Shown here one piece after another: positions 49,201-63,023 of a stretch of DNA of 64,000 bases; the stretch's first letter is position 1; each line of letters begins with the position of its first letter. The stretch is from assembly GCA_025453395.1 (NCBI GenBank), contig JALOQK010000007.1, positions 6,524 through 70,523 on the forward strand, given 5' to 3'. Both the position numbers and the translations under genes were made by a program. Below the pieces are notes generated by a model that worked only from the letters and a program-made list of their open reading frames with translations, was not told the DNA's origin and searched no databases. This DNA comes from Candidatus Omnitrophota bacterium (GTDB lineage Bacteria > Omnitrophota > Gorgyraeia > Gygaellales > Profunditerraquicolaceae).

Positions 49201-49452
49201 AGAAGTAACTGGAGTTGCGGCTTCAAAACCGGAATTTAAGCTTGCGCCAATTGCCGCGGTACCAATAGAGATACCCGCGCTGGTAGCTATTTTGCCCCAA
49301 TCCACTTTAGAAATTTCTCCGCCGCCTGCGGAACTCCGAGCAGCAAAAGCTAATGGTTGTAATATTAAACAAAAAATTATTATTAGGGAAATAAGGTTTC
49401 CCCCTTTCCCCAATCTTTGACTGGTTTTCATCTGCAACTTTTTTTCAGTCAT
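46294..49452 (-). CDS. Exported 1052-aa protein with N-terminal signal/anchor and a G/S/T/A/N-rich N-terminal half; function unknown. Probably co-transcribed with the giant gene (1-nt spacer).
   Basis: ORF track. The N-terminus is MTEKKLQMKTSQRLGKGGNLISLIIIFCLILQPLAFAARSSAGGG. The stop at 46294-46296 is followed by the giant-gene ATG at 46290-46292. Confidence 0.8.
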   Translation of the reverse strand: MTEKKLQMKTSQRLGKGGNLISLIIIFCLILQPLAFAARSSAGGGEISKVDWGKIATSAGISIGTAAIGASLNSGFEAATPVTSETATMGTRFSNTFTGMGNLITNTPGSTAVNAIKPFSAMGDALKNSFALTNMAKGYTTFVAASQVGRLVGVAGNYYGWKPATTMIVSGVAIGATAGFLNPSDALGDAKPTEALNSQINNPSLPTHSFGITQTTNSFSNFGFNTNFSNMLKGASVGALSGFANSAVIAALDRDKINSAKNPGATAQILGMFAGVSATNLGRSIWDPKVYHYDSKYIDAKSGNEVSLDKNKMWQFSDVSVVPKGPLEPGRYLAEPTSNPDILKWTDTKAQIGGGQIFGRFAKAAFVDTFNAQSWPGLAASSMSIIATNSLPEKKKYLAPLVGGLVQSVSYPIFSGMANTYGLDASRYFGSKQDKIEARLRYDYTLRAAGVDLASAKDIALIQKTYKDYRDGKITFEQYNKELNKIASIPFELLLVQGDAQKLSQEQLQNKINNALGANNSGIVEQERINSKALAGSLNLQRGSIDEAQMNRNLAIASLRKQLAEKMPMFAGKVSMGQLKGLADALTTDEALKQIGVTRGQIFASQVYSGVTSGVFESLVTGGLQSALDKNFGDERNMTTKMLFSSGVNMAASVIRGAAWSLGWNNSTADKSEWQNELDFVMPQPYKESFYLTDVKTGSMILDQYGQAVENPSYNAIQDVLSQTSYDRDLLAFNKFVATYNMTPGNGLILHRERMKWDYNQGAEDPRWVASLVADDRNPGLMRSVGASMQQSNVEWANKMFTFGLPLTSERGKAGFGVDSSQISSFAWHNYANSYSAYSLPTLVNIYNSKGLAETLSYLYSQSNQDAAGNAIAGALVQVPGVTRMFNMQPQRLVRLHTLKDVSEPITRQQLAFKYAAKAAGQSENLIWNADYGFTNTFNKQTASNYADNPLARKGGFETLSTEISYPEKPASWLDAYLVDSASELTLKTEQGLQHWYMPADLSRNRYSIQAQVFHGGMGAIETKFWVFPNPMYGVRPQMSESDYLRKSGLTK

Positions 49453-49599
49453 TTTTGAGTTTTTAAGCTCTTTGTGAAACTATTTGTTATCAACTTAAAA
49501 AGAAAACCGGACTGTCAAATACCTGATTTCTCGTCGGTATCGGCAGCCCGGCTATCTTAAGCTTTTACTTTTTCGCTTTACTTTTTTCGCTTTTAAGAT

Positions 49600-49620
49600 C
49601 CGTGGCTTTGCGCCCTCCGA
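49600..49620 (-). promoter_or_regulatory. Conserved leader motif CCGTGGCTTTGCG-N-CCTCCGA (+ strand), copy A. A partial second copy CCGTGGCTTTC lies at 49645-49655.
   Basis: The same 13-mer plus CCTCCGA recurs at 58524-58553, at the same relative position (about +20 to +60) downstream of a second TTGACA/TATAGT promoter. Confidence 0.5.
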
Positions 49621-49669
49621 TTTCTCGGAGTTTGCCTGTTCGTTCCGTGGCTTTCTTAACGACACTTGA

Positions 49670-49697
49670 AGTATAACATATACATATATAGTGTCAA
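49670..49697 (-). promoter_or_regulatory. Near-consensus sigma70 promoter for the operon of the 1052-aa gene plus the giant gene: -35 TTGACA (49692-49697), 16-nt spacer, -10 TATACT (49670-49675)
   Basis: The minus strand reads gcgcTTGACActatatatgtatatgtTATACTtcaag. It lies about 215 nt upstream of the ATG at 49452. Confidence 0.55.
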
Positions 49698-49969
49698 GCG
49701 CTTTTACAAAGAATTTTGAGAGCGTTTTCAATCCGGGGATTTTGGCATATTCTGTTGCGAATAATGAGGTTTGGCGCCTGCTAAAAAAGAGCTTAAAGAG
49801 CTGATATTGCACTATTTTTAGAACTCTAAAACGGCCTTTTCTTAGGGTAAGTTTGAGGGTGAATAACGGGGGTGGGTAGTCAGGAATGAGTGGTGGGTTT
49901 AGCTAGACTAATAACCCACTACCCCTGCCTACCGGCAGGCGGCACAACTCATCCTCAGATTGGACATTG

Positions 49970-50018
49970 AACGGGCAGATTGGACATTAATATTGCAGAT
50001 TGGACATTTCATAGTTTG
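49970..50018 (+). promoter_or_regulatory. Operator-like array of 3 perfect copies of CAGATTGGACATT with 20-bp centre-to-centre phasing (TTGGACATT at 49970, 49990 and 50010)
   Basis: Direct sequence. The same TTGGACATT core recurs 3 times at 60431, 60471 and 60491 over the promoter of the HTH gene. Confidence 0.6.
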
Positions 50019-50554
50019 AAACAATCTGGATATTTGGCATTATATTCAGCTATCTTGGCTTCTTTAGCAGTTATCTTCTCGCTGATTAGTTCAATTTGCT
50101 TCTCTATCGTGTTAATTGCCTTGTTTAGCTTCTCAATAGCAGAGGCATAATCGCCACCAGTAGCCTGCAATGCCAATATCTGGCTTTTTAAATCATCAAC
50201 CGTTGCCTCTAAAGAGGCTCTTTGCGCCAAAAGCCCGGTAGTTACTTCACCATCCGGCTTGGCCTCACCATCAAGCTCTTTGCGCATAACAGCTATCCTG
50301 GCCAATATAATCGGGCAATCATCTTTTTCTTCTGGCGGCTCAGGAACAATAGCGCCGCTTTTAGAGGTATTTTGAGATTGGGTTATTCCCAAAGCATACT
50401 GATTTCCCTCTCCAAAAACATCTCCTGCCTGGCGATATTTATCCTGCACTGACCTGCCCATATAAATCTTCATCGCCACTAATGCCGCGGCGATTATAAT
50501 AACCAGAACCGCATACTCAATAAAACCTTGTGCCTTATTTTTTATTTTCCGCAT
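50009..50554 (-). CDS. Flp-type pilin-like N-terminus (KAQGFIEYAVLVIIIAAALVAM) fused to a C-terminal coiled-coil domain of about 100 aa (181 aa)
   Basis: ORF track. It has the (A/G)Q(G/S/T)xxEY class-III prepilin motif followed by a hydrophobic helix. The C-terminal half has a heptad-rich sequence (LEATVDDLKSQILALQ...KQIELISEKITAKEAKIAEYNAKY). Confidence 0.65.
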   Translation of the reverse strand: MRKIKNKAQGFIEYAVLVIIIAAALVAMKIYMGRSVQDKYRQAGDVFGEGNQYALGITQSQNTSKSGAIVPEPPEEKDDCPIILARIAVMRKELDGEAKPDGEVTTGLLAQRASLEATVDDLKSQILALQATGGDYASAIEKLNKAINTIEKQIELISEKITAKEAKIAEYNAKYPDCFKL

Positions 50555-51461
50555 AGTCCACCAATATTGTGGTTATTGACATATTCTCAGAGGCATTGCT
50601 GGCATTAGAAAGCATAATATTACATTTGTCCCCGGACGGATTAGAAAAATTCAATTCGGTCAAGGCTAACTCTATCTTCATATCTGCCGCTGGCGTCAGC
50701 TTCTTGCATGAAGGACAATCCCCGGACACGCCTCCGGCAACCTTTCTTTCAATAGGCTTCATATCCACCAGGTTCCATCCTTTAGCGGACATATTATCCT
50801 TATAAAAATTGGCCACAGGCTCTATATCGCTTGAGACAGAATAAGTCGCTCTCATTGTTTTATCCTGCTCTGACAAAGTCAACAAGGATGCCCCCGGATA
50901 AACCGGAGTAACGTCTTTCTTTGGATGCGCCAGCAACTTGGGGAAAACATTTTCCGCCTCTTTAGAAGAACTTGCATTATCATTTGTCTTGCTGTATGAA
51001 ACCGTAAATCTTGTCTTATTGTCCCGGGAAAATTCAGAAGGCATAAAACTTATGATCACCTGCTCCGGGTCTTTAGAAAAATACATGGTGCGCCCCATGG
51101 AATCTTCCATTTCCGGGGTCACCCTTACTGCCGGCAGTTTCTTTAGATTCTGCATTAATTCCTGCTCTGTCCAGCCTGATGCCGATAATTTTTTGCGGTA
51201 GAAATCCTTTATTGCCGCGGCGCCCTGGCTGGAAGCATAATAAATAAAATCTAATTTTCTCCCGGCGATCATCCGCTCTTCCCTCTTGACTTCTTCCGTT
51301 CCATAAGGAACGGACAATTCCTGTTTGGCAGATCCAAGTTCCCACCAGGAAGCGGAAGCAGAATTGGCCCCCGCGGTCAAAATAAAAATCATCAGCGCCA
51401 CCGGAAACATTTTTTTACGGCAATAAAACATTTTTCTCTTCCTCCTGTTTTCTAAAAACAA
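50535..51461 (-). CDS. Exported hypothetical protein with two related domains (xFYxxxxSAxGW motif twice). The true start is probably one of the internal Met codons (MFPVALMIFILTAGANSASA).
   Basis: ORF track. The N-terminus is signal-like. Its 5' end overlaps the end of the upstream TadG-like gene. Confidence 0.6.
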   Translation of the reverse strand: MFLENRRKRKMFYCRKKMFPVALMIFILTAGANSASASWWELGSAKQELSVPYGTEEVKREERMIAGRKLDFIYYASSQGAAAIKDFYRKKLSASGWTEQELMQNLKKLPAVRVTPEMEDSMGRTMYFSKDPEQVIISFMPSEFSRDNKTRFTVSYSKTNDNASSSKEAENVFPKLLAHPKKDVTPVYPGASLLTLSEQDKTMRATYSVSSDIEPVANFYKDNMSAKGWNLVDMKPIERKVAGGVSGDCPSCKKLTPAADMKIELALTELNFSNPSGDKCNIMLSNASNASENMSITTILVDYAENKK

Positions 51462-53281
51462 TCGGCATTGGCGGTACGCAGTTCTTTTATTTGCGTCTCT
51501 ATGTCCGCGGCATTTTGCCTGAAACCATCGGCATTATCCCTTAACAGATCCGCGGAAGCAAAAAGTGCGTTGGCCTGCTCTATCAACCCGGCAACCAACA
51601 ATGCGTTTGCCTCAACCTCCGTCTCACTTGCCTGACTTTCCATAGTTGCGGCGTTTTGATATAAATCCACTACTTGCCCTTCCAAAGCCGAAACATCTTC
51701 AACAACACTTTTGCAACGGTTATAGGTTACCCCCGGGTCGTCGGTCTCCACAATCGAGGCATCATGGCGCAATACCGGTTCATGGATCTGGCCAAGCCCG
51801 GTGAAATTAACCACACTGTAACTTGTAATATCCGGATATTCTGTTTGCCACAAACCAAGATCCCCGCCTTGATGATGTTGAGTAGTCCTTAAAGTAACTA
51901 AGCGGTCATGCACAATATCATCTATCCAGCAGATGATAAAAGGAAATGACGACTCAAGGTTTCCGCTTCGCACTGGGTACGCCGGCAACAATCCTGCCAA
52001 GGCTATGGCAAGAGGTGCGTACATTGAGGCCATCGTAGCTATGGCTGCTGCATTAGATTCCAAACCAAGTGCATTCATTTTTAAACCGGCGAAATTGGTT
52101 TCTATGCCTGCAAAAAGAGCAGCTTCCGCAGCCGCACATTGCGTAGCCCAGGTATGGCAACAAGGACAACCGGCATGGCAATGGCTGTGGCAACATGATA
52201 AACAAGGCCCCACGCAGGCGCAGGCAAGGACCAGAGCATCTTCTGCGATAGTATAACTTACTCCCGCTGCCACCCAACTAGCCTCAGCGGAAGCATATGA
52301 TGCCCCTGCCGCAGTTAAGGAAGCTGTAGCTGCCTTTGCAGAAGAAATAATATTCCACAAAAGCGGCAATTCCACAACACTGGGAAGTGCCGCGACTTTT
52401 AAATCAAAGGTATCCACCTTATCAAGCTTAACGCTTGTTTTGACAAAATGCAATCTTTCCTGGCCGTCTACCCAGCGATATTCATATTCATCGCCATGCT
52501 TTATATTATCAAGAAAATCGCTAAAGCTATCCCGGTAATTATTTCTTGCATCATCGCCAACAACAGAACTTGCGGGCTTGCCGGCTTTAAGCTTTGAACC
52601 GATTTCGCTGTTCATAAAAGCGAATTTATGCGCCAGTTCAATCGCGCTTTCCCTGCCTTCTTTTGCCATCTTTCTTATTGAAGCGTAAAAATAGATCTGC
52701 GCTGCGGCAAAGGCAGCAACAGAAATAAAGATCGCTATAAGCGTAGTAGTAAAAACCTCCATTGCCTCAAGCGCCAAGCCAATAGCAATTATCGCCTTGC
52801 CTATGCTAAATCCCGCCGCAGCCAGTTTCCCGATTGCCGCTGAAGTAAAGCCCAATGCCGCGCAAGGTGACGGACATGCAGTTGATTCCGCGGAACCGGC
52901 AGCAATTACCGCGGCAGTGGCTGCGGCCTCCGCGGCGGTTGCCGCAGCCTGACCGGCAATCGCCTGCGTATGCGCCTGGATCAAGTTATAAGTAGCAATG
53001 GCAAAAGAAACAGCCACCAGCGCATAAAACTCCCAATACCCTGTTTCCATGGCTGAATTGGCCTGGGCTACGCCGTTAAAGACATTTGCCATCACCGACC
53101 CGCCGGCTAAACTTCCGGCATCAGCGGCATTGCTGGTATCGGTCTTAAAAAAAGCCACCTTGCTTAAATTCATAGTCACCAGCGACATGGTGATAAGCAC
53201 AACCAGAACCACAAGAAATATGGGGATAAGCTGGCCCTTTTTGCCGAGACGGAATTTATAGAAATGAAATCTACGGAACAT
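51452..53281 (-). CDS. tadG: TadG-like pilus assembly protein (609 aa) with an N-terminal Tad_N-type TM segment and an unusual Cys/His-rich cluster
   Basis: The N-terminus is GQLIPIFLVVLVVLITMSLVTMNLSKV ... NAADAGSLAGG (a TadE/G-like motif). The internal cluster is CACVGPCLSCCHSHCHAGCPCCHTWATQC (about 52140-52230). Confidence 0.6.
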   Translation of the reverse strand: MFRRFHFYKFRLGKKGQLIPIFLVVLVVLITMSLVTMNLSKVAFFKTDTSNAADAGSLAGGSVMANVFNGVAQANSAMETGYWEFYALVAVSFAIATYNLIQAHTQAIAGQAAATAAEAAATAAVIAAGSAESTACPSPCAALGFTSAAIGKLAAAGFSIGKAIIAIGLALEAMEVFTTTLIAIFISVAAFAAAQIYFYASIRKMAKEGRESAIELAHKFAFMNSEIGSKLKAGKPASSVVGDDARNNYRDSFSDFLDNIKHGDEYEYRWVDGQERLHFVKTSVKLDKVDTFDLKVAALPSVVELPLLWNIISSAKAATASLTAAGASYASAEASWVAAGVSYTIAEDALVLACACVGPCLSCCHSHCHAGCPCCHTWATQCAAAEAALFAGIETNFAGLKMNALGLESNAAAIATMASMYAPLAIALAGLLPAYPVRSGNLESSFPFIICWIDDIVHDRLVTLRTTQHHQGGDLGLWQTEYPDITSYSVVNFTGLGQIHEPVLRHDASIVETDDPGVTYNRCKSVVEDVSALEGQVVDLYQNAATMESQASETEVEANALLVAGLIEQANALFASADLLRDNADGFRQNAADIETQIKELRTANADCF

Positions 53282-53288
53282 ATTATTC

Positions 53289-53573
53289 CTATTTTTGCCC
53301 TGTGCCGCCGGTTAAGACTTCTTCTTCTGTCAGATTATCCGGGGCATAGACCGGCCAGCGTAGCGTGTATTTGTCAGACGAAGTCCCGGCGGGAACCCGC
53401 GAGGCATTATAATTGGCCTGCCGCTTGACGATCTGGGCGTTGCCCCAGAACCAGATCCTGATGATCCCGCCGATAAAAAGAAAAATAATAATGAAAACCA
53501 CCGCGGTCTCAAGCGTTGACTGCCCGGATCGGCCTTTCTTAATCGGATTTATTCTGCGAACGGAGTTACCCAT
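53289..53573 (-). CDS. tadE: TadE-like minor pseudopilin (94 aa)
   Basis: The N-terminus is GQSTLETAVVFIIIFLFIGGIIRIWFW. It lies within the tad gene string. Confidence 0.55.
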   Translation of the reverse strand: MGNSVRRINPIKKGRSGQSTLETAVVFIIIFLFIGGIIRIWFWGNAQIVKRQANYNASRVPAGTSSDKYTLRWPVYAPDNLTEEEVLTGGTGQK

Positions 53574-54298
53574 TGCTGCGTCCTCTCCACTGTGCCATCC
53601 TTAGAGGCCTTACTGCTGTATTTATACTGACCATCAACCGGATCACGGTAAATATACTGCTCTACATCCACCAGATTTCCTCCTGAAATAATCTTATCAT
53701 TATCATCATTGCTATCGTCGTCGTTTTCCCTGATAGTGTAGGGAATAGTTGTCCTGATGCGCTCCTTAAGGCTAGAGCCCTTAATATTAGAAATACCGCC
53801 ATAATCTTCCTGCTTATTAACATTCTCTTCAAACTCAAGATTAGATTCTGTTGTCATATCTTCAACCCTTAAAGACCTGTTTTCTTCATCATCTTCTGAA
53901 ATATAATCACGGAATTTCCTTGTGTACTCGTCTTCATTGATCCGATAGGTCATGGTATTTTCCGGCTGTTCTCCCACCTTAGGCACTGCCCAAAACACAT
54001 TCGCAGAGCCGCTTACAGTCTGGGGGCTTCCTTTTTTGAAGCTTGAAAAATCCGCGTTGCGCCGATTCTGTAATAAGGTATACTGGACAGACGCGCCTGC
54101 TCCTTCGGATTCTGACCCGATATAAGTGCACCCCTTTTGCAACGCTCTCCGGAAAGCCTCCATTTTGGTGTATTGCTGGTCGTTTAATCTTTGCATGTAA
54201 GAAATAAGCATCCCGAATAAAAAAAGGATCAGCCCGCCGAAAATGGCAAGCTCTATGACTGCCTGGCCTTTTTCTCTGAAAACTGTCCCCGCGCGCAT
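53549..54298 (-). CDS. tadF: TadE/TadF-like pseudopilin (249 aa)
   Basis: The N-terminus is GQAVIELAIFGGLILFLFGMLISYMQ. It lies within the tad gene string. Confidence 0.55.
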   Translation of the reverse strand: MRAGTVFREKGQAVIELAIFGGLILFLFGMLISYMQRLNDQQYTKMEAFRRALQKGCTYIGSESEGAGASVQYTLLQNRRNADFSSFKKGSPQTVSGSANVFWAVPKVGEQPENTMTYRINEDEYTRKFRDYISEDDEENRSLRVEDMTTESNLEFEENVNKQEDYGGISNIKGSSLKERIRTTIPYTIRENDDDSNDDNDKIISGGNLVDVEQYIYRDPVDGQYKYSSKASKDGTVERTQQWVTPFAE

Positions 54299-54315
54299 TT
54301 TACCTCTTTCTTATG

Positions 54316-54750
54316 TTACTCCTTTGAATCTACTAAACTGGCCTCTAAATCTTCATTCTTAAATTCACTGTCAGACGCTCTTACAATATCATCAGGCAGA
54401 CCCTTCTTGGAAGAAATAAAATCGTATTTATCTTCGCCGCCCGCATATTCCTCTGAACGGCTGGAACCGGTAATAATGGTTGTGCCCTGAAGGTTGGAAC
54501 TTGTGCCGCCTCCCCGCAAAAGCCTAGTTGTGCTGACCATATCAGAAGTTGTGCTGGATTTACTTTGCGCGTACACCCCGGGGCTGGGCTCCCCTTCCTG
54601 AACAGGACTGATAAAAGCGTCTGTCATATCCTTAACTTTGCCCTGGAGGCCGCGTTTAATGTATGTATTCATACCGATAAAAGCCGCGGCCACCACGCTT
54701 AAGATAATCGCGTACTCCACAAAAGACAATCCTTTATTCTGTCTTATCAT
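54316..54750 (-). CDS. Flp-family pilin paralogue with extended C-terminal domain (144 aa)
   Basis: KGLSFVEYAIILSVVAAAFIGMNTYIKRGLQGKV. Confidence 0.65.
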   Translation of the reverse strand: MIRQNKGLSFVEYAIILSVVAAAFIGMNTYIKRGLQGKVKDMTDAFISPVQEGEPSPGVYAQSKSSTTSDMVSTTRLLRGGGTSSNLQGTTIITGSSRSEEYAGGEDKYDFISSKKGLPDDIVRASDSEFKNEDLEASLVDSKE

Positions 54751-54753
54751 CTT

Positions 54754-55104
54754 TTACCTCTGGGGTTCTTGGCTAAAATCCCCGACACTCTCATCCTTGC
54801 TTATATTCTGCTCTATCCGGGTACTGCTTTCCGAGATGCTCTTATTTGCTTCAAGCACAGAGCCTGAAGAACTGTCCGCGGGATTAGTGTAGCTTGTGGA
54901 AGTTTCCGCGATCTTACGCGTTATTCTGCTGTTGGCGACTGTCGCCCCGGGAGAATACATACCGCCATCGCTTATTTGCCCGGCAGTATTACGTAAAGAC
55001 CCCTGCACGCCTCTTTTAAAATAGACAGTCATGGAAAAAATAGCAATAGCCACAACCCCGATCATCACAACATACTCCATTATGCTCTGGGCCTTGTTCT
55101 TCAT
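54754..55104 (-). CDS. Flp-family pilin paralogue (116 aa)
   Basis: KAQSIMEYVVMIGVVAIAIFSMTVYFKRGVQG. Confidence 0.65.
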   Translation of the reverse strand: MKNKAQSIMEYVVMIGVVAIAIFSMTVYFKRGVQGSLRNTAGQISDGGMYSPGATVANSRITRKIAETSTSYTNPADSSSGSVLEANKSISESSTRIEQNISKDESVGDFSQEPQR

Positions 55105-55107
55105 AAC

Positions 55108-55263
55108 TTACCTCTTGGATTCATCCAGCTCTTCCTGCGCCTGCTTTAGCCGCGCGTTCATTGAGCGCTGGATATATTGATACATCGCTATCAATGCCGC
55201 CGATATAACAATAATAAGCATCGCGTATTCCAGAAAGTTCTGCCCGCGTTTTGAATTAAGCAT
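55108..55263 (-). CDS. flp: Short Flp pilin (51 aa), absent from the ORF track because it is under 60 aa
   Basis: Manual translation gives MLNSKRGQNFLEYAMLIIVISAALIAMYQYIQRSMNARLKQAQEELDESKR*. The ATG is at 55261-55263 and the TAA at 55108-55110. Confidence 0.65.
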   Translation of the reverse strand: MLNSKRGQNFLEYAMLIIVISAALIAMYQYIQRSMNARLKQAQEELDESKR

Positions 55264-55266
55264 AAA

Positions 55267-55545
55267 CTATTCTCCGCTATCTTTTCCTGCGATGTTGCTT
55301 GTTACCGAAGCTGCCACCGTGCCCATAACCCCTTCTTTAGTCAACCCGCCCTCAGGGGCAGCTTCGCCTTGGCTTACATTTCCGGTGTCATCCGGGACAT
55401 TGTTGACTATTGCCCCGGAGGCAGTGTTAAAATAATTTTTAAATGAGCCCTTCATTTTCATAATAAAACCCGCTGATACTATCGCGGCTATTACCACCGC
55501 CATAATTACAAAATACTCCGCTGTTGTCTGGGCTTTTTTATTCAT
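55267..55545 (-). CDS. Flp-family pilin paralogue (92 aa)
   Basis: KAQTTAEYFVIMAVVIAAIVSAGFIM. Confidence 0.7.
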   Translation of the reverse strand: MNKKAQTTAEYFVIMAVVIAAIVSAGFIMKMKGSFKNYFNTASGAIVNNVPDDTGNVSQGEAAPEGGLTKEGVMGTVAASVTSNIAGKDSGE

Positions 55546-56400
55546 TTAGAGCACCTTTTTAGTCACAAAATCCAAGAGTATCGGCCCGCCGATGACAATG
55601 CCGATAACCGGAAGTATGCAGAATATTAAAGGTATCAATATCTTTAACGGCGCCTGCATGGCGATTCTCTCTCCGCGGTTAAACCTCTGCATGCGCGAAT
55701 CTTCAGAAAGTATGGTAAAAGCCTCGGCAACCGGGGTGCCCATTCTCTCGGCCAAAACAAGGGTCTGGACAAAGGAACTAACTTCAGAAATATTAAGCCT
55801 TCTGGACATGTCTTTTAATGCCTGCGAACGCGATTTGCCCCACTTGATTTCCTCCAGCACAAAACCCAATTCTTCAAGCATGGGGTTCATGGTGGTTTTT
55901 TCAAGTATCCATTTTATGGAAGTGGTAAAATCCAGGCCTGCCTCAATACAAAGCCCTAACAGATCTACTGTTTCCGGCAAAATGCGCGCGATAGCATTTT
56001 TGCGCCGCGCGATTATCTGCTTTAAGAAAATATCCGGGATAATATACCCTAATGCCAGACAAACAATAAATGTCGGGGGGTCGAATTTATTAAAACCGAA
56101 ATAAGCCGCTATGCACAAGACAACTATCAACAATATTTTCAGATTAAAAAAGGCCTGAACGCTGAATTTTACCCGCGAGGCGTCAAGCTTAAGCTTGATC
56201 TTGTCATAAATCTTGATCTTCTCCAGCATTTTATGCGTAAAAGGAAAGATATCATTAAGAAAAGAATTAAAATTAAATTTCCCTCCAGTTGCCTCTTCGG
56301 ATAATTTCATGCGCGAGGCGGAAACTTTCTCATCATACCGCGAGGCAAGAAGGATGAAACTGGCGCATCCCACGATAAAAAGAATTATTAATATTTCCAT
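55546..56400 (-). CDS. tadC: TadC-like inner-membrane platform protein (T2SS F-type domain), 284 aa
   Basis: Polytopic membrane protein with T2SSF-like helices. It is adjacent to the TadB-like gene and the pilin genes. Confidence 0.75.
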   Translation of the reverse strand: MEILIILFIVGCASFILLASRYDEKVSASRMKLSEEATGGKFNFNSFLNDIFPFTHKMLEKIKIYDKIKLKLDASRVKFSVQAFFNLKILLIVVLCIAAYFGFNKFDPPTFIVCLALGYIIPDIFLKQIIARRKNAIARILPETVDLLGLCIEAGLDFTTSIKWILEKTTMNPMLEELGFVLEEIKWGKSRSQALKDMSRRLNISEVSSFVQTLVLAERMGTPVAEAFTILSEDSRMQRFNRGERIAMQAPLKILIPLIFCILPVIGIVIGGPILLDFVTKKVL

Positions 56401-56418
56401 ATCTCTCCTATTATCCGC

Positions 56419-57288
56419 CTATACTTTTATTTGGCTGAATTTATGGATCAAAATCATCCCCACTATTTGTAAACCGCCCGCGATAATCAACATAAACCTG
56501 CCCTGCTCGTTTTGCATCATCGCGTCAAAATGATGCGGATTAAATTTCAATACCCACATCACAAAAAGTATCGGAAGAACCGACATGATTATGCCCTGCA
56601 GCCTTCCCTGAAGGGTCAAGGTCTTAATATTCTCTTTTAGTTTACGGTTATCTCTAATGGTAGTCACCAGGCGGCTGAAGACCTTGGTTAAATCTCCTCC
56701 TGTTTCACGCGCCACCAAAATAGAATTAACTACCATGCTTAAATCTTCCATCATCATTCTTTTATCCAGCCTGCGCAAACTCTCCTCAAGGGTGATACCC
56801 ATCTTATTTTCCCTTACCACTAAGCCGATTTCCTGGCTCATCGGAGCAGGCATTTCTTCAATCAAAACCTCAAGCGACTGCAAAAGGCTCAAGCCGCCTT
56901 TTAAGGAACTTGAAAGTATCATAATCGCGTCTAATATCTGGACATTGAATTTTTTGCGCCGCCTGCCATTACGGATTTTTAATATAAGATTTGGTATGAC
57001 AAGGCCCAAAAACAACCCTGCGATAGCAATAAGCGGCGAGCCTGAAAGTAAAAAGAATATTCCGGCAAATATCGGAGGCAGGATAAAGTAAAAACGCACG
57101 ATGGATTTGGGGCTTTTATCATAATAAAAAAGCTTATCCAGCTCCTGCGCTACGACTTCTTCTTTTTTTTCTTTCCAGATTTTTAGTTTATCTTCAAGGG
57201 AAGGGGCAAACGCCATAGTAAGGATCACAATGGCCGCCGCTGTCAAAAACAAAACACTTATCAAAGCCATGCCGCTAAACATTGTCAA
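56419..57288 (-). CDS. tadB: TadB-like inner-membrane platform protein, 289 aa
   Basis: Membrane protein paralogous to the adjacent TadC-like gene, in the order typical of tad loci. Confidence 0.75.
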   Translation of the reverse strand: MTMFSGMALISVLFLTAAAIVILTMAFAPSLEDKLKIWKEKKEEVVAQELDKLFYYDKSPKSIVRFYFILPPIFAGIFFLLSGSPLIAIAGLFLGLVIPNLILKIRNGRRRKKFNVQILDAIMILSSSLKGGLSLLQSLEVLIEEMPAPMSQEIGLVVRENKMGITLEESLRRLDKRMMMEDLSMVVNSILVARETGGDLTKVFSRLVTTIRDNRKLKENIKTLTLQGRLQGIIMSVLPILFVMWVLKFNPHHFDAMMQNEQGRFMLIIAGGLQIVGMILIHKFSQIKV

Positions 57289-57312
57289 CTCCTGTTATGG
57301 TGTGCTTGCCTT

Positions 57313-57669
57313 TTATTGTGGCCAGTACTCATCACTCTGCTTGGCAACTGTTTCTGTGCCTGTGCGGGTCTGCTTCTGCTTACTGACAGTAGTAGTCTTG
57401 GTCTTCGCGCCAACATCATCCCCGGCCGCAGCGTCTTCGGTTGTGCCAGACACATCCTCGGAAGATTCTGTGTTGCTGATAATTGTATATTCATTGGTAG
57501 TCTGCCCGGGAGAAAATTGTTCTCCGATCTGGTCAGAAGCTTCCCTTATTTTTCCTTGCACGCCGCGCTTAAAATATGTCTGCATGGCGATAAGAGCGGC
57601 TACTACTACGGCAATAATTACCGCGTATTCCAGAGTGCTCTGAGCTTTTTCACTATCACGCATAAACAT
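57313..57669 (-). CDS. Flp-family pilin paralogue with C-terminal extension (118 aa)
   Basis: KAQSTLEYAVIIAVVVAALIAMQTYFKRGVQGKI. Confidence 0.65.
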   Translation of the reverse strand: MFMRDSEKAQSTLEYAVIIAVVVAALIAMQTYFKRGVQGKIREASDQIGEQFSPGQTTNEYTIISNTESSEDVSGTTEDAAAGDDVGAKTKTTTVSKQKQTRTGTETVAKQSDEYWPQ

Positions 57670-57712
57670 TTTATCACCTCCTCAAGCTTTTGACCACCTT
57701 CTATTAACAAAT

Positions 57713-58096
57713 TTAATGACCGCCCAAATACCCCGGGGCAGAAGTATCTTCTTCCTGCCACCCGATAACCTGCTGACGAGAAGCATCGGTTACTTCGCTA
57801 CCCACAACTCTCTCTACCTCTCCCTCTTTCTTCAGTCTCTCTGTTTTAGTAGCATCGGTCTTACTCTGGGCGCTTGAGGAAGCATAATACGGCTCATATT
57901 GTCCGCTTGTAAATTCTAAAGTCTGCCCTCCCACATCCCCAGCTGCACCGGTATGATCCACAACGTCTTTTGTCCTTCCCTGCAAGCCCCTTCTCACATA
58001 AACCTGCATGGCTAATGCCGCGCCTACAACCAAGCCTATTAAGATGGCGTATTCTGCGGTAGACTGTCCGTTCTTTTTTCTTAAACGCATAAACAT
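57713..58096 (-). CDS. Flp-family pilin paralogue with C-terminal extension (127 aa)
   Basis: KNGQSTAEYAILIGLVVGAALAMQVYVRRGLQG. Confidence 0.65.
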   Translation of the reverse strand: MFMRLRKKNGQSTAEYAILIGLVVGAALAMQVYVRRGLQGRTKDVVDHTGAAGDVGGQTLEFTSGQYEPYYASSSAQSKTDATKTERLKKEGEVERVVGSEVTDASRQQVIGWQEEDTSAPGYLGGH

Positions 58097-58144
58097 TTTT
58101 CACCCCCCTTTTTTTATACCCTTAGCTTGCCAATTGCCTGCCTG

Positions 58145-58312
58145 CTAAAACTTTATCTTGTCTACCCCGCTTTTCATCTGGTCGCCTACATGCGTCAACG
58201 AATCTTGAACCCTATTTCCGATTACCTTGTTGGCAACCACAACTATTGCCGCGACAATGGCTGTCAGGATAACCACATACTCCAAGGTTGACTGCCCTTT
58301 TTTCTTGATCAT
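58145..58312 (-). CDS. flp: Canonical short Flp pilin (55 aa), first gene after the promoter and leader; absent from the ORF track
   Basis: Manual translation gives MIKKKGQSTLEYVVILTAIVAAIVVVANKVIGNRVQDSLTHVGDQMKSGVDKIKF*. The SD GGAGGAG lies 6 nt upstream of the ATG (58310-58312). The stop TAG is at 58145-58147. Confidence 0.75.
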   Translation of the reverse strand: MIKKKGQSTLEYVVILTAIVAAIVVVANKVIGNRVQDSLTHVGDQMKSGVDKIKF

Positions 58313-58342
58313 ATCTCTCCTCCAGTTAATAAACTGTTGTTT

Positions 58343-58480
58343 ATCCCGACGTTACGCTTCGCGTAAGTCGGGATTATTTCGGCCAAACGATTTACGTTCA
58401 CTTCGTTCCGTAAATCGTGGCCTCAATAAAAAAGCCGAGTTACCAATATAAACCTTTTTTAGGCTTTCGGTAACCCGGCT
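58343..58480 (-). promoter_or_regulatory. Structured 5' leader: three consecutive stem-loops between the promoter and the first flp gene
   Basis: H1 (58343-58374) pairs atcccgacgttacgc with gcgtaagtcgggat. H2 (58381-58422) pairs a perfect 10-bp acgatttacg with cgtaaatcgt and has GGCC clamps. H3 (58433-58480) pairs agccgagttacc with ggtaacccggct. None is followed by a U-tract on the coding strand. Confidence 0.5.
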
Positions 58481-58523
58481 AACGTTGTCGCTTTTGACCC
58501 TCCAGAAATTGCGAGCAATCGTC

Positions 58524-58553
58524 CCGTGGCTTTGCGTGGCCGCCGACCTCCGA
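58524..58553 (-). promoter_or_regulatory. Conserved leader motif CCGTGGCTTTGCG...CCTCCGA, copy B
   Basis: Identical 13-mer plus 7-mer to the copy at 49600-49620. Confidence 0.5.
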
Positions 58554-58582
58554 CAGCCGTGCTATTTCGTTGCCGCAATCAA

Positions 58583-58611
58583 ACTATAACATTTCTAATA
58601 AACACTGTCAA
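58583..58611 (-). promoter_or_regulatory. Near-consensus sigma70 promoter for the flp/tad operon: -35 TTGACA (58606-58611), 17-nt spacer, -10 TATAGT (58583-58588)
   Basis: The minus strand reads cTTGACAgtgtttattagaaatgtTATAGTttg. It starts about 33 nt after the stop of the HTH gene. Confidence 0.6.
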
Positions 58612-58643
58612 GCCGATTACCCCTAAGACAAGAAACCGTTTTC

Positions 58644-60419
58644 TTAAAGCTTAAACCAGATTCTTTTTTCCTGAAAACTGCATCCGGTTTCGTTAAGCCT
58701 TAAAAAAGCGTATTCCAGATCTTTGCGCCAGGCGCAATTTTCCGGAAAAATAAATTCCGCGGTATAATGTTTATCAAAGGCGGATAGTTTTGTTTTTAGA
58801 TTGTAGAAACGGCTTTTCATCGTCGAGAAATCCACGTCCTGATAGGACGCGGGCAAAAAATGCCACCTGAAATAGGCGTCCAGAAAATATAAATATCTCT
58901 CCAGGTACTCTTTTATTTCGGCGGGTTTTTCCTGCGCGTCCACCCAGGAAAAGAAACGCTGGGCATCAGCGGTATAAGTGAACAATTCCATTTTACGGCT
59001 ATAATCCTGAAAGGTTAATTCCGGAGCCGGCCATCTTTGAAAATAGGCATGGCATAAATCTTCTGTTGACAAGTTTGCAAGCAAAGAATTCTTCAGAATA
59101 AGCAAAGAAATCTTATCCCCTAAAGATGCTTTGACTGCGGCGCCTTTTAACGTAAACCATTGATTCTTATCCGGTTGCAGTATATTTATTTCTATGCTCG
59201 CCACAAAGATCTTCTTTCCTAAAGGCTTAATCTCAAAGGGGCAGAAATCGCTTATGGATTGAACTTTACGGTAATTGACAAATTGCCAAGGCCAAACCGC
59301 GAAGATCAAACCGGTTTTTTTATACTGGTCAAATTTGAAAATATTTATGTCCTCAAAACGCTCCCCCTGAAAAATAAGTGACGACACATAGGCATCATCT
59401 TTTCCTTCGCAGGCGTTGAATAAATCCACAAATTCTTCTGTGGGCCGTTCATATCCGGGCGCGGAAAAAAGAATCCAAATATTCTTTTCATTTAGGGCTT
59501 GGTTAGCGTAAATCCTTGTTTTGCTTAATGTTAGGGAAAAATCATAGGTTATGTAAGGAGTAGACCAAACTGTATAAAAACGCGGGTCAAAATAAAGATA
59601 CTTGCCGCTGGATAACATTATTTTCAGGCTGCGCACTTCTTCCGGGATTGTGCCCATTAAACGGCCTATTTCCGGAAAGACCATTTCCTTAACCCTTTCT
59701 AGCTCATTAAGATACGCGAGAAAATCTTCTTTGCTGAAATTGGCTCCTAATAAAGGCCAAATTTCCGGTTCCAGAGAGGGATTTAACAAGAAATTGTCAA
59801 ATAGGGAAGAATAAAATAAAGCTTCTAAGCGCTTCAACGATTGCTCGTTGTAATAAGAAGTTTTATTGAAAATTTGATTGTTCAAACGAGGCAAACCTTT
59901 AAACAAGGAATCTACTGCTTTTAAAAGAATCACCCCGGTTGTAATTGCTTCTAAGAACTTATCTTCCTGTGGTGCAATGGCTTGCGGTATAGAAACCGGA
60001 ATAAACCTTGGCTCTGGCACTGGCTCCGGAACAGGTTCGGGCTTTGGCTCTGGTTTAGGTTCAAAGATAGGTTCTACTTTGGACGGCTCTTCTGCTTTTG
60101 TTTCTTGTGGCTTTTGGCTTGTGGCTTGTGACTCACTAGTCGGATTTAATTCCGTGACAGGCTGCGCCAACGCAAGCGCCTTACGGATTCTCTCTTTTAA
60201 CTCTGGAGCAATGCTCTTTTTGGGCCTGCTTCTGCGGCCAACAGGCATACTTAAACCTGACTCTTTAAAAACCGCGTTTATGCTTGATTTTGAAATATCA
60301 ACCTGAAATTGTTCTTGGATCAATAGATTTAAAGCCCGGCAGCTTATTTTGGGGTTTTCTTTCTTTTTTAGCAGTATAAGCTGTTTTATTTCATCTGTAA
60401 CTTTGTAAGCAATCCCCAT
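58644..60419 (-). CDS. HTH-domain protein (591 aa): N-terminal helix-turn-helix, a GRRSRPKK basic patch, an (EPKP)n/(PEPV)n Pro-rich linker, and a C-terminal domain of about 400 aa of unknown function. Candidate locus regulator.
   Basis: The N-terminus KISCRALNLLIQEQFQVDISKSSINAVFKESGL is HTH-like. Its own promoter is covered by the TTGGACATT array. Confidence 0.55.
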   Translation of the reverse strand: MGIAYKVTDEIKQLILLKKKENPKISCRALNLLIQEQFQVDISKSSINAVFKESGLSMPVGRRSRPKKSIAPELKERIRKALALAQPVTELNPTSESQATSQKPQETKAEEPSKVEPIFEPKPEPKPEPVPEPVPEPRFIPVSIPQAIAPQEDKFLEAITTGVILLKAVDSLFKGLPRLNNQIFNKTSYYNEQSLKRLEALFYSSLFDNFLLNPSLEPEIWPLLGANFSKEDFLAYLNELERVKEMVFPEIGRLMGTIPEEVRSLKIMLSSGKYLYFDPRFYTVWSTPYITYDFSLTLSKTRIYANQALNEKNIWILFSAPGYERPTEEFVDLFNACEGKDDAYVSSLIFQGERFEDINIFKFDQYKKTGLIFAVWPWQFVNYRKVQSISDFCPFEIKPLGKKIFVASIEINILQPDKNQWFTLKGAAVKASLGDKISLLILKNSLLANLSTEDLCHAYFQRWPAPELTFQDYSRKMELFTYTADAQRFFSWVDAQEKPAEIKEYLERYLYFLDAYFRWHFLPASYQDVDFSTMKSRFYNLKTKLSAFDKHYTAEFIFPENCAWRKDLEYAFLRLNETGCSFQEKRIWFKL

Positions 60420-60430
60420 ATAATCCCTCT

Positions 60431-60499
60431 TTGGACATTTATTAGGTTAGATAGCAATATAACATTCAGTTTGGACATTGTCAAGGCATTTTGGACATT
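60431..60499 (+). promoter_or_regulatory. Three TTGGACATT sites (60431-60439, 60471-60479, 60491-60499; spacings 40 and 20 bp) flanking or overlapping the HTH-gene promoter, at roughly +10, the spacer/-35 edge, and -45
   Basis: Direct sequence. The orientation and core are identical to the 49970-50018 array. Confidence 0.6.
60456..60484 (-). promoter_or_regulatory. Near-consensus sigma70 promoter of the HTH gene: -35 TTGACA (60479-60484), 17-nt spacer, -10 TATATT (60456-60461). It overlaps the TTGGACATT sites.
   Basis: The minus strand reads gccTTGACAatgtccaaactgaatgtTATATTgct. The -10 lies about 37 nt upstream of the ATG at 60419. Confidence 0.6.
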
Positions 60500-60522: not shown

Positions 60523-60864
60523 TTAGCTAATAAGAATGGTATCGCCTTCTTTGGATTCAGAAGAAACAAGACTGCCTGCGGGAAATTCAATAACATAGGC
60601 TGCTTGCAAATACACCCCGCTTAAACGCCAGGGCTTTAGGTTGGCAATGATCTTTATTATCCGGTTCTCTTTATTCACGAATATCAAATCCAAAGAAAAT
60701 TTCATAAAGAAGGTGTGCACAGAATTACAAGGCTGTAAAATAAGCGCTTGGCCGTAAGACAGAGATTCTTTCCCTAAAAGGCCTTTCATACGGCTAAATA
60801 AAGAATCTGCCACTGCCGCATTCTGGGCAAGGCAGACACCAGAAGTTAAATTGGTTATTCGCAT
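60523..60864 (-). CDS. DUF192 (COG1430-like) small protein, 113 aa
   Basis: LILQPCNSVHTFFMKFSLDLIFVNKENRIIKI matches the DUF192 signature block. Confidence 0.7.
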   Translation of the reverse strand: MRITNLTSGVCLAQNAAVADSLFSRMKGLLGKESLSYGQALILQPCNSVHTFFMKFSLDLIFVNKENRIIKIIANLKPWRLSGVYLQAAYVIEFPAGSLVSSESKEGDTILIS

Positions 60865-60869
60865 TGGGA

Positions 60870-63023
60870 TTATTTAGAAAAAGTGTTCTCTGGAAGAGGA
60901 ATACCTTTAATCTTAATTTCTTCCATAAAAGTAGGCAGCTCTCCGGTAGGCTTAAAATCTCCTAAAACCTTGCCTTGAGCATCTATGCCGGTTTGCTTGA
61001 AGGTAAATATGTCTTTCATGGCAATATGCATATCGTCTTTCATGCCGGTTATTTCAGTTACCTGCAGGACCTTGCGGCTGCCGTCGGAAAGCCGGGCAGT
61101 ATGCACAATGATGTTTACTGCCGAGGCGATCATCTCGCGAATGGCCCTTATAGGCAGTTCAATCCCGGACATTAAGATCATGGAATCAAAACGCGACAAA
61201 ACATCCCGGGTAGAATTGGCATGCACTGTGGTCATGGAGCCGTCGTGCCCGGTGTTCATTGCCTGAAGCATGTCCAAAGTTTCTACCCCGCGGCATTCCC
61301 CGACGATAATGCGGTCCGGGCGCATTCTTAAAGTATTGCGGAATAAATCGCGTATAGTTACAGCGCCCCTTCCCTCAATGTTTGCCGCACGAGATTCAAG
61401 ACGAACCCAGTGCTCCTGGCTTAATTTAAGCTCTGCGGCATCCTCAATAGTAACAATGCGCTCTTGATCGGGGATGAAAGCTGATAAAATATTAAGCACC
61501 GTGGTCTTGCCGCTTCCGGTACCTCCGGAAACAATGATATTCTTGCGGCATAAAACGCTTGCCTTAATAAAATCTGCCATCCCCTGGCTGAGCGAACCCA
61601 TGCCGATTAGCTCTTCAATCTTAAACCTTTCTTTGCGGAATTTTCTTATGGTAAGCGTAGGCCCGGTCAAGGAAAGAGGAGGAATAATCGCGTTGACACG
61701 CGAGCCATCCGGAAGCCGCGCGTCCACCATAGGGACTGACTCATCAATTCTTCTTCCGATGGGAGCGATGATTCTCTCAATAATTGTTTTAAGCTGGTCA
61801 TTGGAAATAAATTTCTTGCTGGTCATCTCTATTTTTCCGAAACGCTCAACATAGATTTCATCTTTATTGTTTACCATAATATCCGTAATGCTGGGGTCGG
61901 CCAAAAGGTCTTCCAAGGGGCCTAATCCCAACGCCTCGTCAAGCATCTCCTTGACTAATTTCTTGCGTATTTCCGACGATGAAATAAGGCTGCCCGCCTC
62001 TTCGGCAAGAAAATTTGTCACCATCATTTCGGCCTTTATTTTTAACTCTTGCGTTTTCTTACTGTCGGCAAAGGTGCGGGAATCCATGCGCTTTAAGTTA
62101 AGCTCTTCAATAAGCCGGGCGTGGATCCTGCGCTTTAAGATAAGGATCTCATCATCGCTGCTATAAACTTCCGGCTCCTGCAGTGGCTCGGTCAAGCCTT
62201 GCTGCAGCCAGAAATCCCCTCCCTTAGAAACAAGGATCTCTTTAATCTTTAATTCATCTATTCTGCGCGCTGGCAAATATAATTTCTCATTTACAGCTAA
62301 ATCCTGGGCTAAGGCTTTAATGGCCATGGCAATCTTGGTCTTGGGACTGTCTATCACAAGCGGCACCCCGCGGTTTATCGCCTGCCCGCAGATTTTACCT
62401 TCAGACGGGATTTTAGCGATGATCTCTGCCGGCAGGTTTACCCGCACCTCCTGCCAGCTGATGCTTGCCAGAGATTCCGCGCGGTTTAAAACTATTCTTG
62501 TCATGGCTAGAGGAAAATGTAAAAATTGCAATGTGTCAAGAGCCCATTTGGTTTGGTATATGGAAAGGATATCCGGGGTCACTACAAGCAAAATAAGGTT
62601 GGATTGATTAAGGGTAGCTATAAAAACATCGCTGAATTGCTTTCCGGCGTCAACAACAATATAATCGTAAGACTTATCCAGGCTTGCCAATATATTCTTG
62701 ATCTGCAGGGGATCAACATGCGGAGCTGACTGCGGACGGGTGACCGCGGGGATAAAATCAAGATTCAACAAAGAATTATGAAAAATATAATCTTCTTTAT
62801 TTGCCGCGCCAGGGGTCCTTTTTAATTGGCCTATCCAGTCAGCCATGGTCTTGGTAGGATGCATATCCAGCATCCGCGCCATGTCGCCAACTGCTTGCAT
62901 ATCCAGATCAATAAGACAGACCTTCTTGGCCTGGTCATTAGCCAAAGAAACAGCCAGATTAGAAGCAAGAATAGTCTTTCCTACTCCGCCTTTTATGCTA
63001 AAATTAACAATGATTTTTGCCAT
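60870..63023 (-). CDS. cpaF: Fusion of a TadZ/CpaE-like ParA/MinD-type ATPase domain (N-terminal) with a CpaF/TadA secretion ATPase (C-terminal), 717 aa
   Basis: The N-terminus has IKGGVGKT (deviant Walker A). The C-terminal part has VSGGTGSGKTT (Walker A), VGECRG and TGHDGSMTTVHANS blocks, typical of CpaF/T2SSE ATPases. Confidence 0.8.
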   Translation of the reverse strand: MAKIIVNFSIKGGVGKTILASNLAVSLANDQAKKVCLIDLDMQAVGDMARMLDMHPTKTMADWIGQLKRTPGAANKEDYIFHNSLLNLDFIPAVTRPQSAPHVDPLQIKNILASLDKSYDYIVVDAGKQFSDVFIATLNQSNLILLVVTPDILSIYQTKWALDTLQFLHFPLAMTRIVLNRAESLASISWQEVRVNLPAEIIAKIPSEGKICGQAINRGVPLVIDSPKTKIAMAIKALAQDLAVNEKLYLPARRIDELKIKEILVSKGGDFWLQQGLTEPLQEPEVYSSDDEILILKRRIHARLIEELNLKRMDSRTFADSKKTQELKIKAEMMVTNFLAEEAGSLISSSEIRKKLVKEMLDEALGLGPLEDLLADPSITDIMVNNKDEIYVERFGKIEMTSKKFISNDQLKTIIERIIAPIGRRIDESVPMVDARLPDGSRVNAIIPPLSLTGPTLTIRKFRKERFKIEELIGMGSLSQGMADFIKASVLCRKNIIVSGGTGSGKTTVLNILSAFIPDQERIVTIEDAAELKLSQEHWVRLESRAANIEGRGAVTIRDLFRNTLRMRPDRIIVGECRGVETLDMLQAMNTGHDGSMTTVHANSTRDVLSRFDSMILMSGIELPIRAIREMIASAVNIIVHTARLSDGSRKVLQVTEITGMKDDMHIAMKDIFTFKQTGIDAQGKVLGDFKPTGELPTFMEEIKIKGIPLPENTFSK

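Follow-up and report, generated by a model that had tools for sequence, protein, structure and literature searches.

Autoregulated transcription factors with phased operators are a known kind of system. The OmpR/PhoB boxes, the operators of lambda CI and the AraC promoters are all built from several short sites placed at multiples of the helical turn, which lie around -45, in the core promoter and past the start of the factor's own gene, and which recur as arrays at a second transcription unit. Self-binding HTH proteins are also encoded by insertion sequences (IS): InsA of IS1, InsA of IS2 and the N-terminal domains of transposases bind their own terminal repeats over the transposase promoter, and Tc3A and Pax have paired bipartite domains. 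In our study, we describe a layout of this kind in a stretch of 64,000 nucleotides (nt), hereafter the window, from a metagenome-assembled genome of Candidatus Omnitrophota (contig JALOQK010000007.1). In it, a 13-bp site occurs in two arrays: one over the promoter of a tad-locus gene that encodes a 591-amino acid (aa) helix-turn-helix (HTH) protein, and the other between the end of the tad locus and an operon with a giant gene. Omnitrophota are uncultured, ultra-small and probably predatory or parasitic organisms, whose most discussed features are their Tad pili and their giant genes, whose protein products run to tens of thousands of residues. The Omnitrophota papers that we consulted on Tad loci and giant genes mention no regulator, operator or riboswitch. 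Our analysis, which rests on sequence comparison, favors with moderate confidence the view that the boxes are DNA operators, that their binder is most likely the 591-aa HTH protein, and that this protein would regulate its own gene and co-control the giant-gene unit.

The comparison with the described systems shows both the likeness and the differences. Unlike the regulators of the OmpR/PhoB type, the candidate protein carries neither a receiver nor a winged-helix Trans_reg_C domain (neither was found in its family) and combines a homeodomain/Tc3-type HTH with a 430-aa C-terminal domain; the original prediction had pointed to winged-helix regulators as an example, whereas the HTH turned out to be of the homeodomain/Tc3/Pax-paired type. 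In addition, the site is here an asymmetric 13-bp monomer site that is nearly invariant across the phylum, and the distal arrays adjoin the stop codon that precedes them, some 300 bp away from the promoter. In contrast to the IS-encoded HTH repressors, the 591-aa gene is single-copy and syntenic, its sites are not inverted terminal repeats, and a catalytic DDE domain is not demonstrable. The new elements are the regulator family, the phylum-wide 13-mer and the arrays that abut stop codons upstream of giant genes.

An exact search of the window identified six copies of TTGGACATT, all of them on the plus strand (49960, 49980, 50000, 60431, 60471 and 60491). Dinucleotide-preserving shuffles contain 0.67 copies on average and three at most, and none of 100 reaches six; variants with one mismatch are at background level (21 matches, 18.3 expected). 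On the minus strand, which carries all the genes of the region, the full element is an asymmetric 13-mer, AATGTCCA(A/T)TCTG. Array 1 (49956-50008) consists of three identical 13-mers, CAGATTGGACATT on the plus strand and AATGTCCAATCTG in the direction of transcription, with an exact spacing of 20 bp. The three perfect copies and their spacing are as originally predicted, and only the coordinates given for them, 49970-50018, were some 10-14 bp too high. The TGA stop that adjoins this array (50009-50011) ends the gene of 181 aa that closes the tad locus. The 7-bp spacers of array 1 are unrelated to each other, which excludes a recent tandem duplication; given these spacers and the phylum-wide conservation of the site, both chance and recent tandem duplication were rejected as explanations. 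Array 2, predicted at 60431-60499 with spacings of 40 and 20 bp, was found with this arrangement and occupies 60427-60499. The predicted sigma70-like promoter of the HTH gene, with sites at about +10, at the edge between the -35 box and the spacer, and at -45, was also recovered: taking the transcription start as approximately 60449, the three sites are centered at about -44, -24 and +16 of a promoter that matches the consensus at 11 of 12 positions. A position weight matrix built from orthologous HTH promoters gives the sites of array 2 scores of 18.8, 23.0 and 12.9 bits. The same matrix finds in the window one further weak match, at 43611 (12.2 bits), and shuffled windows contain 1.26 matches on average. 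No Rfam family matches the arrays of the window. All the coordinates are collected in Table 1.

Special attention was given to the conservation of these sites in related organisms, for which we compared 80 species-representative loci and three metagenome loci. The HTH gene, mostly present in one copy per contig, occupies the same slot in every locus with a mapped gene order: it follows the genes of TadZ/A and DUF192 and precedes the pilins. In nearly all of the approximately 70 loci with upstream sequence, TGTCCA is found at a constant distance of -22 from codon 2, and 68 of 70 orthologous promoters keep the 13-mer at the same place, the proteins themselves being only 30-40% identical. Aligned at their start codons, the promoters read ...AAATGTCCAATCTGGAGG...ATG behind a TTGACA/TATAnT promoter whose -35 and -10 boxes are conserved across loci, and this promoter is often preceded, immediately before its -35 box, by a second copy. 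Across all 13 positions of the element, the count matrix hardly varies. The anatomy of the promoters was counted on the 67 with a recognizable core, in which the 5' untranslated region (5'UTR) of the HTH gene is only about 24-30 nt long. A downstream site, which is centered between +5 and +20 (as a rule near +10 to +15), adjoins the Shine-Dalgarno sequence and keeps a constant distance to the start codon, occurs in 63 of them; an upstream site, centered between -45 and -50 (about -47), in 37; and a site in the promoter spacer in seven, inverted in five of these.

The distances between sites carry a further regularity. Co-oriented neighbors are 20-22, 29-32, 39-43, 51-55 or 61-66 bp apart, with few values in between. 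This corresponds to a period of 10.7 bp (R = 0.61, n = 115), obtained from related loci whose spacings are not independent; the maximum R over all the tested periods in 2000 uniform control sets was 0.32. The pattern indicates that the proteins would sit on one face of B-DNA. Some copies lie upstream of the -35 box, and inverted copies exist in promoter spacers and in some arrays. Together with the 10.7-bp period, these copies lead us to read the sites as elements of double-stranded DNA and not of RNA. The original prediction of transcription-factor operators is supported by the 68 promoters and by the period.

Matches to the matrix of at least 17 bits number 174 in the 1.29 Mb of 82 related loci, compared with three or four in shuffles. 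The HTH promoters of 70 loci contain 102 of them, 50 form clusters elsewhere and 22 are singletons; two conserved positions, the HTH promoters and the clustered arrays, therefore account for 152 of the 174. The possibility that the motif might be abundant away from promoters had been raised from the beginning, and in the related loci scanned it is not abundant outside these two positions. In at least 22 species loci, distal clusters of two or three co-oriented sites lie 9-12 kb away from the start of the HTH gene, where they immediately follow the pilin/tadBC operon, irrespective of the gene that ends it. Arrays of this kind recur in at least 60 loci. Searching metagenomes for pairs of perfect sites separated by 5-30 nt added 59 further loci, and in most of them the array comes right after tadC, p181, a p1052-like gene, TP_methylase or another large open reading frame (ORF). 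A large ORF, with 1000 to more than 2500 codons, follows the metagenome arrays at a distance of 170-830 nt, and in two loci (L111 and L127) such an ORF has arrays on both sides. Downstream of the arrays outside the window we find a conserved promoter, roughly 250-350 bp away, usually a c-di-GMP-I riboswitch, and then a homologue of the 1052-aa gene or a large ORF. These species and metagenome loci support the predicted link of the second array to the giant-gene operon, at the level of gene arrangement. Our direct observations are the motif, the conservation of its positions, the phasing of the sites along the helix and the fact that they are associated with large ORFs as well as with the HTH gene.

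In the window, a 560-bp intergenic region separates the last tad gene from the unit of the 1052-aa and giant genes, and array 1 stands at its head. The giant-gene promoter (P_giant) has its -35 box about 260 bp and its transcription start about 293-345 bp downstream of the array. A near-palindrome of the family AAGAAAGCGCTCTCTT begins approximately 33 nt upstream of this -35 box. The same palindrome occurs within 500 nt downstream of 40 of 92 arrays (for example in L016, L084, L112 and L126), against a background of 0.08 per kb, and the distance from the end of an array to the palindrome downstream is usually 140-270 nt. A second, dimeric regulator probably binds there. The 5'UTR of the giant-gene operon contains a cyclic di-GMP (c-di-GMP) riboswitch aptamer, and a second one follows the pilin promoter (P_pilin), between the HTH gene and the pilin/tadB/tadC genes; this arrangement is kept in L007, L017, L021, L086, L116 and L127. 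Riboswitches for c-di-GMP are known to control type IV and Tad-like pili, as in pilA1 of Clostridioides difficile and the GEMM-I elements of Vibrio and Geobacter. Similarly, the aptamers of the window lead the pilin and giant-gene operons, forming a control layer distinct from the TGTCCA sites and common to both units; P_giant has a third one, the palindrome at about -62. As the two aptamers show, the shared control of the two units is exerted at least partly through c-di-GMP. In two loci, a FIST-domain protein, a histidine kinase and a GGDEF response regulator are encoded divergently upstream of the tad locus (L001, 1-2150; L003, 1-3046), and it is plausible that they are the c-di-GMP source for the riboswitches.

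Table 1. Sites, promoters, leaders and genes of the window, in the order of transcription
Feature	Coordinates	Strand	Remarks
Secretin-TonB_C gene	63028-63855	-	First in transcription order
TadZ-TadA fusion gene	60870-63023	-	717 aa
DUF192 gene	60523-60864	-	Precedes array 2
Array 2, upstream site U	60487-60499	-	AATGTCCAAAATG; center about -44 of P_HTH; 23 nt past the DUF192 stop
P_HTH core promoter	60484-60456	-	TTGACA-17-TATATT with upstream TG; 11/12 consensus positions
Array 2, spacer site S	60467-60479	-	AATGTCCAAACTG; covers the last -35 base and spacer; center about -24
Array 2, downstream site D	60427-60439	-	AATGTCCAAAGAG; about +10 to +22, center about +16; overlaps the Shine-Dalgarno GAGGG
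591-aa HTH gene (NCBI MUF05_06645)	58644-60419	-	Directly after array 2
P_pilin	58611-58583	-	TTGACA-17-TATAGT; sigma70-type
Second c-di-GMP-I riboswitch aptamer, RF01051	58466-58573	-	37.8 bits (gathering score 35)
Genes of pilin-like proteins, TadB, TadC, pseudopilins, TadG-like protein, 308-aa ORF and 181-aa coiled-coil ORF	end at 50009	-	
Array 1, site 1	49996-50008	-	AATGTCCAATCTG; 24.7 bits; 0 nt after the TGA stop 50009-50011
Array 1, site 2	49976-49988	-	AATGTCCAATCTG; 24.7 bits; 20 bp to each neighbor
Array 1, site 3 (most downstream)	49956-49968	-	AATGTCCAATCTG; 24.7 bits, the matrix maximum
Near-palindrome GAAAACGCTCTC	49718-49729	-	Family consensus AAGAAAGCGCTCTCTT; center about -62 of P_giant
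P_giant	49697-49670	-	TTGACA-16-TATACT with upstream TG; 11/12 consensus positions
c-di-GMP-I (GGC variant) riboswitch aptamer, RF03167	49538-49645	-	60.5 bits (gathering score 59)
1052-aa gene	46294-49452	-	First gene of the unit downstream of array 1
Giant ORF	1-46301	-	More than 15,433 stop-free codons; continues past the window start

A hypothetical protein from a Candidatus Omnitrophica metagenome-assembled genome has the same sequence as the 591-aa protein, which consists of an N-terminal transposase-type HTH (residues ~5-66), a linker rich in proline, glutamate and lysine, and the 430-aa C-terminal domain, for which no confident structural neighbor was found. Its homologues number 73 in a close database and 873 clusters at 50% identity in the full library, and those with a name are nearly all from Omnitrophota. 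Among 90 family members, the N-terminal 65 residues match HTH_32 in 64, HTH_33 in 60 and HTH_Tnp_Tc3_2 in 38, all of these matches being below the curated thresholds of Pfam, and the fold of this segment matches those of the Tc3 and Pax paired domains. Within the protein, conservation is highest in the HTH, where the mean pairwise identity is 58%, compared with 35-48% in the C-terminal parts and 24% in the linker, and this segment includes a nearly invariant stretch, SKSSIN..K followed by PVGRRxKKKR; this near-invariance is in keeping with that of the DNA site. A Pfam scan detected no DNA-binding domain in any other tad-locus ORF of the window. A profile search of the Protein Data Bank with the family returned nothing relevant, and the best 150 matches of a search against 1.84 billion proteins were only family members. 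The top structural matches, which are weak, are transposases (Tn4430 TnpA, piggyBac and Tn5, the last by Foldseek with E = 0.03). The best hhalign segment against IS4 of E. coli (E = 0.33) and IS186 (E = 0.01) is their Y..RW.IE..F block. No DDE Pfam match was found in the 90 family members, and one family member matches DDE_Tnp_1_4 weakly (E = 0.065). We take these matches as a hint of transposase ancestry, not as a result.

The identity of the binder, the sign of the regulation and the way in which the distal array acts are what we infer from this arrangement. The asymmetric 13-bp monomer site suits an HTH of the Tc3/paired type with a basic arm, which argues for the 591-aa protein as the binder. 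One molecule would occupy each site through its Tc3/Pax-paired-like HTH and the adjacent basic arm, and neighboring molecules would lie on the same face of the helix, since the spacings are multiples of ~10.5 bp. At its own promoter, occupancy around -44, -24 and +16 would most likely repress transcription of the HTH gene by occluding RNA polymerase and hindering promoter escape, and the protein at the +16 site would fill the 5'UTR of about 25 nt and touch the Shine-Dalgarno sequence. The predicted autoregulation is supported by a motif that brackets or overlaps the core promoter in 63 of 67 promoters and by a locus in which this is the sole protein with a DNA-binding domain detected by Pfam. 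At the distal array, the same protein could couple the giant-gene unit to the tad regulator, acting alongside the palindromic site and the c-di-GMP riboswitch of the leader. The shared control that had been proposed for the tad locus is borne out only for the HTH gene, since the pilin/tadBC operon has its own promoter and riboswitch and no sites.

It is important to consider several points that weigh against this interpretation. In the matrix scan of the window, P_pilin has no TGTCCA sites, and site D is the weakest in the window, its last four bases being off consensus. The DNA covered by the motif scans extended to ~10 kb from the HTH genes or surrounded pairs of perfect sites. The target of array 1 is deduced at a distance, as it lies ~260 bp from the -35 box of the giant-gene operon and abuts the stop codon of the last tad gene; because of this gap, of the variable spacer, which often contains REP-like sequences (REP, repetitive extragenic palindrome), and of the palindrome at the usual activator position, direct control of P_giant is not evident. 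A regulator encoded elsewhere could also recognize the sites. Finally, 49 of the 72 arrays with a defined upstream ORF start between -2 and +30 nt from its stop codon, be it that of p181, tadC, TP_methylase or a 2421-aa ORF, and this apposition fits a function at the end of the upstream operon at least as well.

Such a function would be that of a polar roadblock or insulator, in which the same protein, bound at the distal arrays (and at U and S after DUF192), would mainly stop or pause the RNA polymerase of the upstream operon. The secretin-tadZA, HTH, pilin-tadBC and giant-gene units would then be partitioned, each under its own promoter and riboswitch. TTF-I and Reb1, Myb-like/HTH proteins that act at repeated terminator sites of rDNA for Pol I, offer a eukaryotic analogy, as they share with our candidate a homeodomain-like HTH and co-oriented asymmetric sites just past a transcription unit; here, in contrast, the system is bacterial, and the likeness is one of HTH type and site layout. 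Apart from the apposition to upstream stops, such a role agrees with sites that are almost always co-oriented with transcription, with the strand of the distal array in L009 and L017 (where the HTH gene alone is inverted and the array stays co-oriented with the pilin operon), with the lack of an intrinsic terminator in the window after the tad operon or the HTH gene, and with the start of array 2 at 23 nt from the DUF192 stop. However, a strong hairpin with a T-run follows the array in many loci (for example L009, L021, L039, L088 and L127), where a protein roadblock is not obviously needed; a loose home-made terminator scan, which discriminates weakly, was positive for 51 of 96 arrays and for 24 of 96 shuffles. 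Moreover, in most species site U is far from the DUF192 stop, and the tie of the arrays to a particular type of downstream promoter suggests a role in initiation. We consider this explanation unlikely as the main function, while ranking it above the other alternatives, and it is compatible with operator function, as the two roles are not exclusive. An improbable reading is that the boxes are operators of a different transcription factor, for instance one encoded elsewhere, with the 591-aa gene as just one of its targets. The subthreshold Pfam matches of the HTH would agree with it, and so would the arrays with no HTH gene in view (L088, L100, L119, L124 and L129). Nevertheless, the presence of the motif at the HTH promoter in almost every species, the HTH being the most conserved segment of the protein, the fit between the site and this HTH type, and the lack of another detected DNA-binding domain among the tad-locus ORFs of the window all favor the 591-aa protein. 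Very improbable is an element acting in RNA, in which a small RNA or an RNA-binding protein would target AAUGUCCAAUCUG, located next to the Shine-Dalgarno sequence in the leader of the HTH mRNA and repeated in the 3'UTR of the upstream operon. Nearly all the copies are sense-oriented in likely transcribed regions, site D adjoins the Shine-Dalgarno sequence at its fixed distance, and the distal arrays have a stop codon on one side and often a terminator-like hairpin on the other, as expected from such an element. The spacing period, though, has no rationale in RNA, and neither the U sites, which in 37 of the 67 loci precede the -35 box of a near-consensus promoter, nor the inverted copies in promoter spacers and arrays fit it; the arrays also lack an Rfam family.

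The similarity of the protein to transposases raises two further possibilities. One of them, which the original prediction had named as its alternative and which we regard as hardly tenable, is that the 591-aa protein is an active transposase and the arrays are subterminal sites of a ~10.5-kb transposon that carries the tad genes. The N-terminal HTH is of the type found in IS630/Tc1/IS3 transposases, the structural and hhalign matches mentioned above point in the same direction, and multiple subterminal sites are typical of the ends of Tn7 and Mu. Yet the six sites of the window are direct and not inverted, the relative orientation of the arrays flips in L009 and L017, arrays flank successive large ORFs in L111 and L127, the DDE Pfam match is missing in the 90 members, and no such arrays were seen in viral contigs. 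The HTH gene is mostly single-copy per contig and keeps the same tad-locus slot in every mapped locus of the 80 species loci fetched; a gene fixed in position, with arrays that are not fixed in orientation, argues that the sites are not transposon ends. We also rejected a prophage, a Mu-like or a Tn7-like element at 50.0-60.4 kb, given the Tad pilus genes, the lack of a tRNA, the direct repeats and the conserved synteny, as well as centromere-like or iteron arrays (parC, sopC, plasmid iterons), as no par or rep genes are near the arrays of the window. The other possibility, which we see as quite unlikely, is that the 591-aa protein is a domesticated DDE-type transposase, with an IS4/piggyBac-like core and a Tc3-like HTH, which became fixed in the tad locus of Omnitrophota, has kept its end sites as operators and loops out the ~10-kb pilus operon. 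The promoter and distal arrays would be synapsed as in a transpososome, insulating or co-activating the giant-gene units, and the acidic residues D278, E468, D472 and E478 might retain a DNA-cleavage or rearrangement activity. Domesticated transposases act as eukaryotic transcription factors in the cases of FHY3/FAR1, CENP-B and the PGBD3 fusion (PMC3459987; bioRxiv 10.64898/2026.08.24.746577). The logic would possibly be the same, with host genes using former end-binding sites as cis-regulatory elements. Our preferred interpretation remains that the sites are operators of the HTH protein encoded in the locus.

Some occurrences of the motif were set aside. In L038, L042, L052, L065, L069 and L081, extra sites located 850-900 bp past the array are coding and were not counted as operators: TCGTCCAATCTGAC and AATGTCCAATCAG, which are separated by about 40 bp and belong to the coding sequence of the 1052-aa homologue, encode the conserved peptides ..VSSNLT.. 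and ..KMSNQRIDE.., are conserved at the nucleotide level in one clade and are absent from the 1052-aa gene of the window. L098 and L104, with longer tandem repeats that merely contain the 13-mer, were not used as evidence, and neither was L129, where eleven in-frame 13-mers (4429-4716) lie inside a chromosomal parA, in a yidC-parA-parB-ndk context, as an in-frame insertion that splits the AAA_31 match in two. Runs of five to eight perfect 13-mers with a 16-bp period precede small ORFs in L089 (37-190), L128 (998-1135) and L130 (2179-2345), and these ORFs have no Pfam match. An 86-aa ORF of the window (49552-49812, minus strand) was rejected as a target gene, since it overlaps P_giant and the riboswitch and is uncalled in the public assembly; it is probably not a gene.

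Our comparison of the loci also yielded observations on the surroundings of the HTH promoter. In L009 (9998-11821) and L017 (9998-11698), the HTH gene is inverted together with its promoter sites in an otherwise collinear tad locus, so that its promoter is divergent from the pilin operon. REP-like palindromes (GGGACGTTTC...GAAACGTCCC; GGGGACACCC...) are scattered in the intergenic regions of many loci, including positions upstream of the HTH promoter or after the arrays (for example in L004, L010, L014, L035, L039 and L088), and in L001 (9300-9930) and L002 a Y1_Tnp (RAYT-like) gene flanked by such palindromes stands between DUF192 and the HTH gene. Among the neighboring genes, TadZ (a ParA-like ATPase) and TadA (T2SSE) form a single protein, and the secretin ends in a TonB_C domain; the related loci retain both fusions. 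An overlap of 8 nt between the giant ORF and the stop codon of the 1052-aa gene points to translational coupling.

These results describe a regulatory module that is conserved across a phylum, in which the 13-bp operator is accompanied by a candidate regulator amenable to purification, by a further site of palindromic sequence and by two c-di-GMP riboswitches. They also draw attention to a large uncharacterized protein family, the C-terminal domain of which may derive from a transposase; if the domestication of such an enzyme were true, the family would be a bacterial counterpart of the eukaryotic transcription factors derived from transposases. Because the module is defined, the regulation of the tad and giant-gene loci becomes testable without culture, and it provides the first testable handle on how Omnitrophota regulate the pilus and giant-gene loci.

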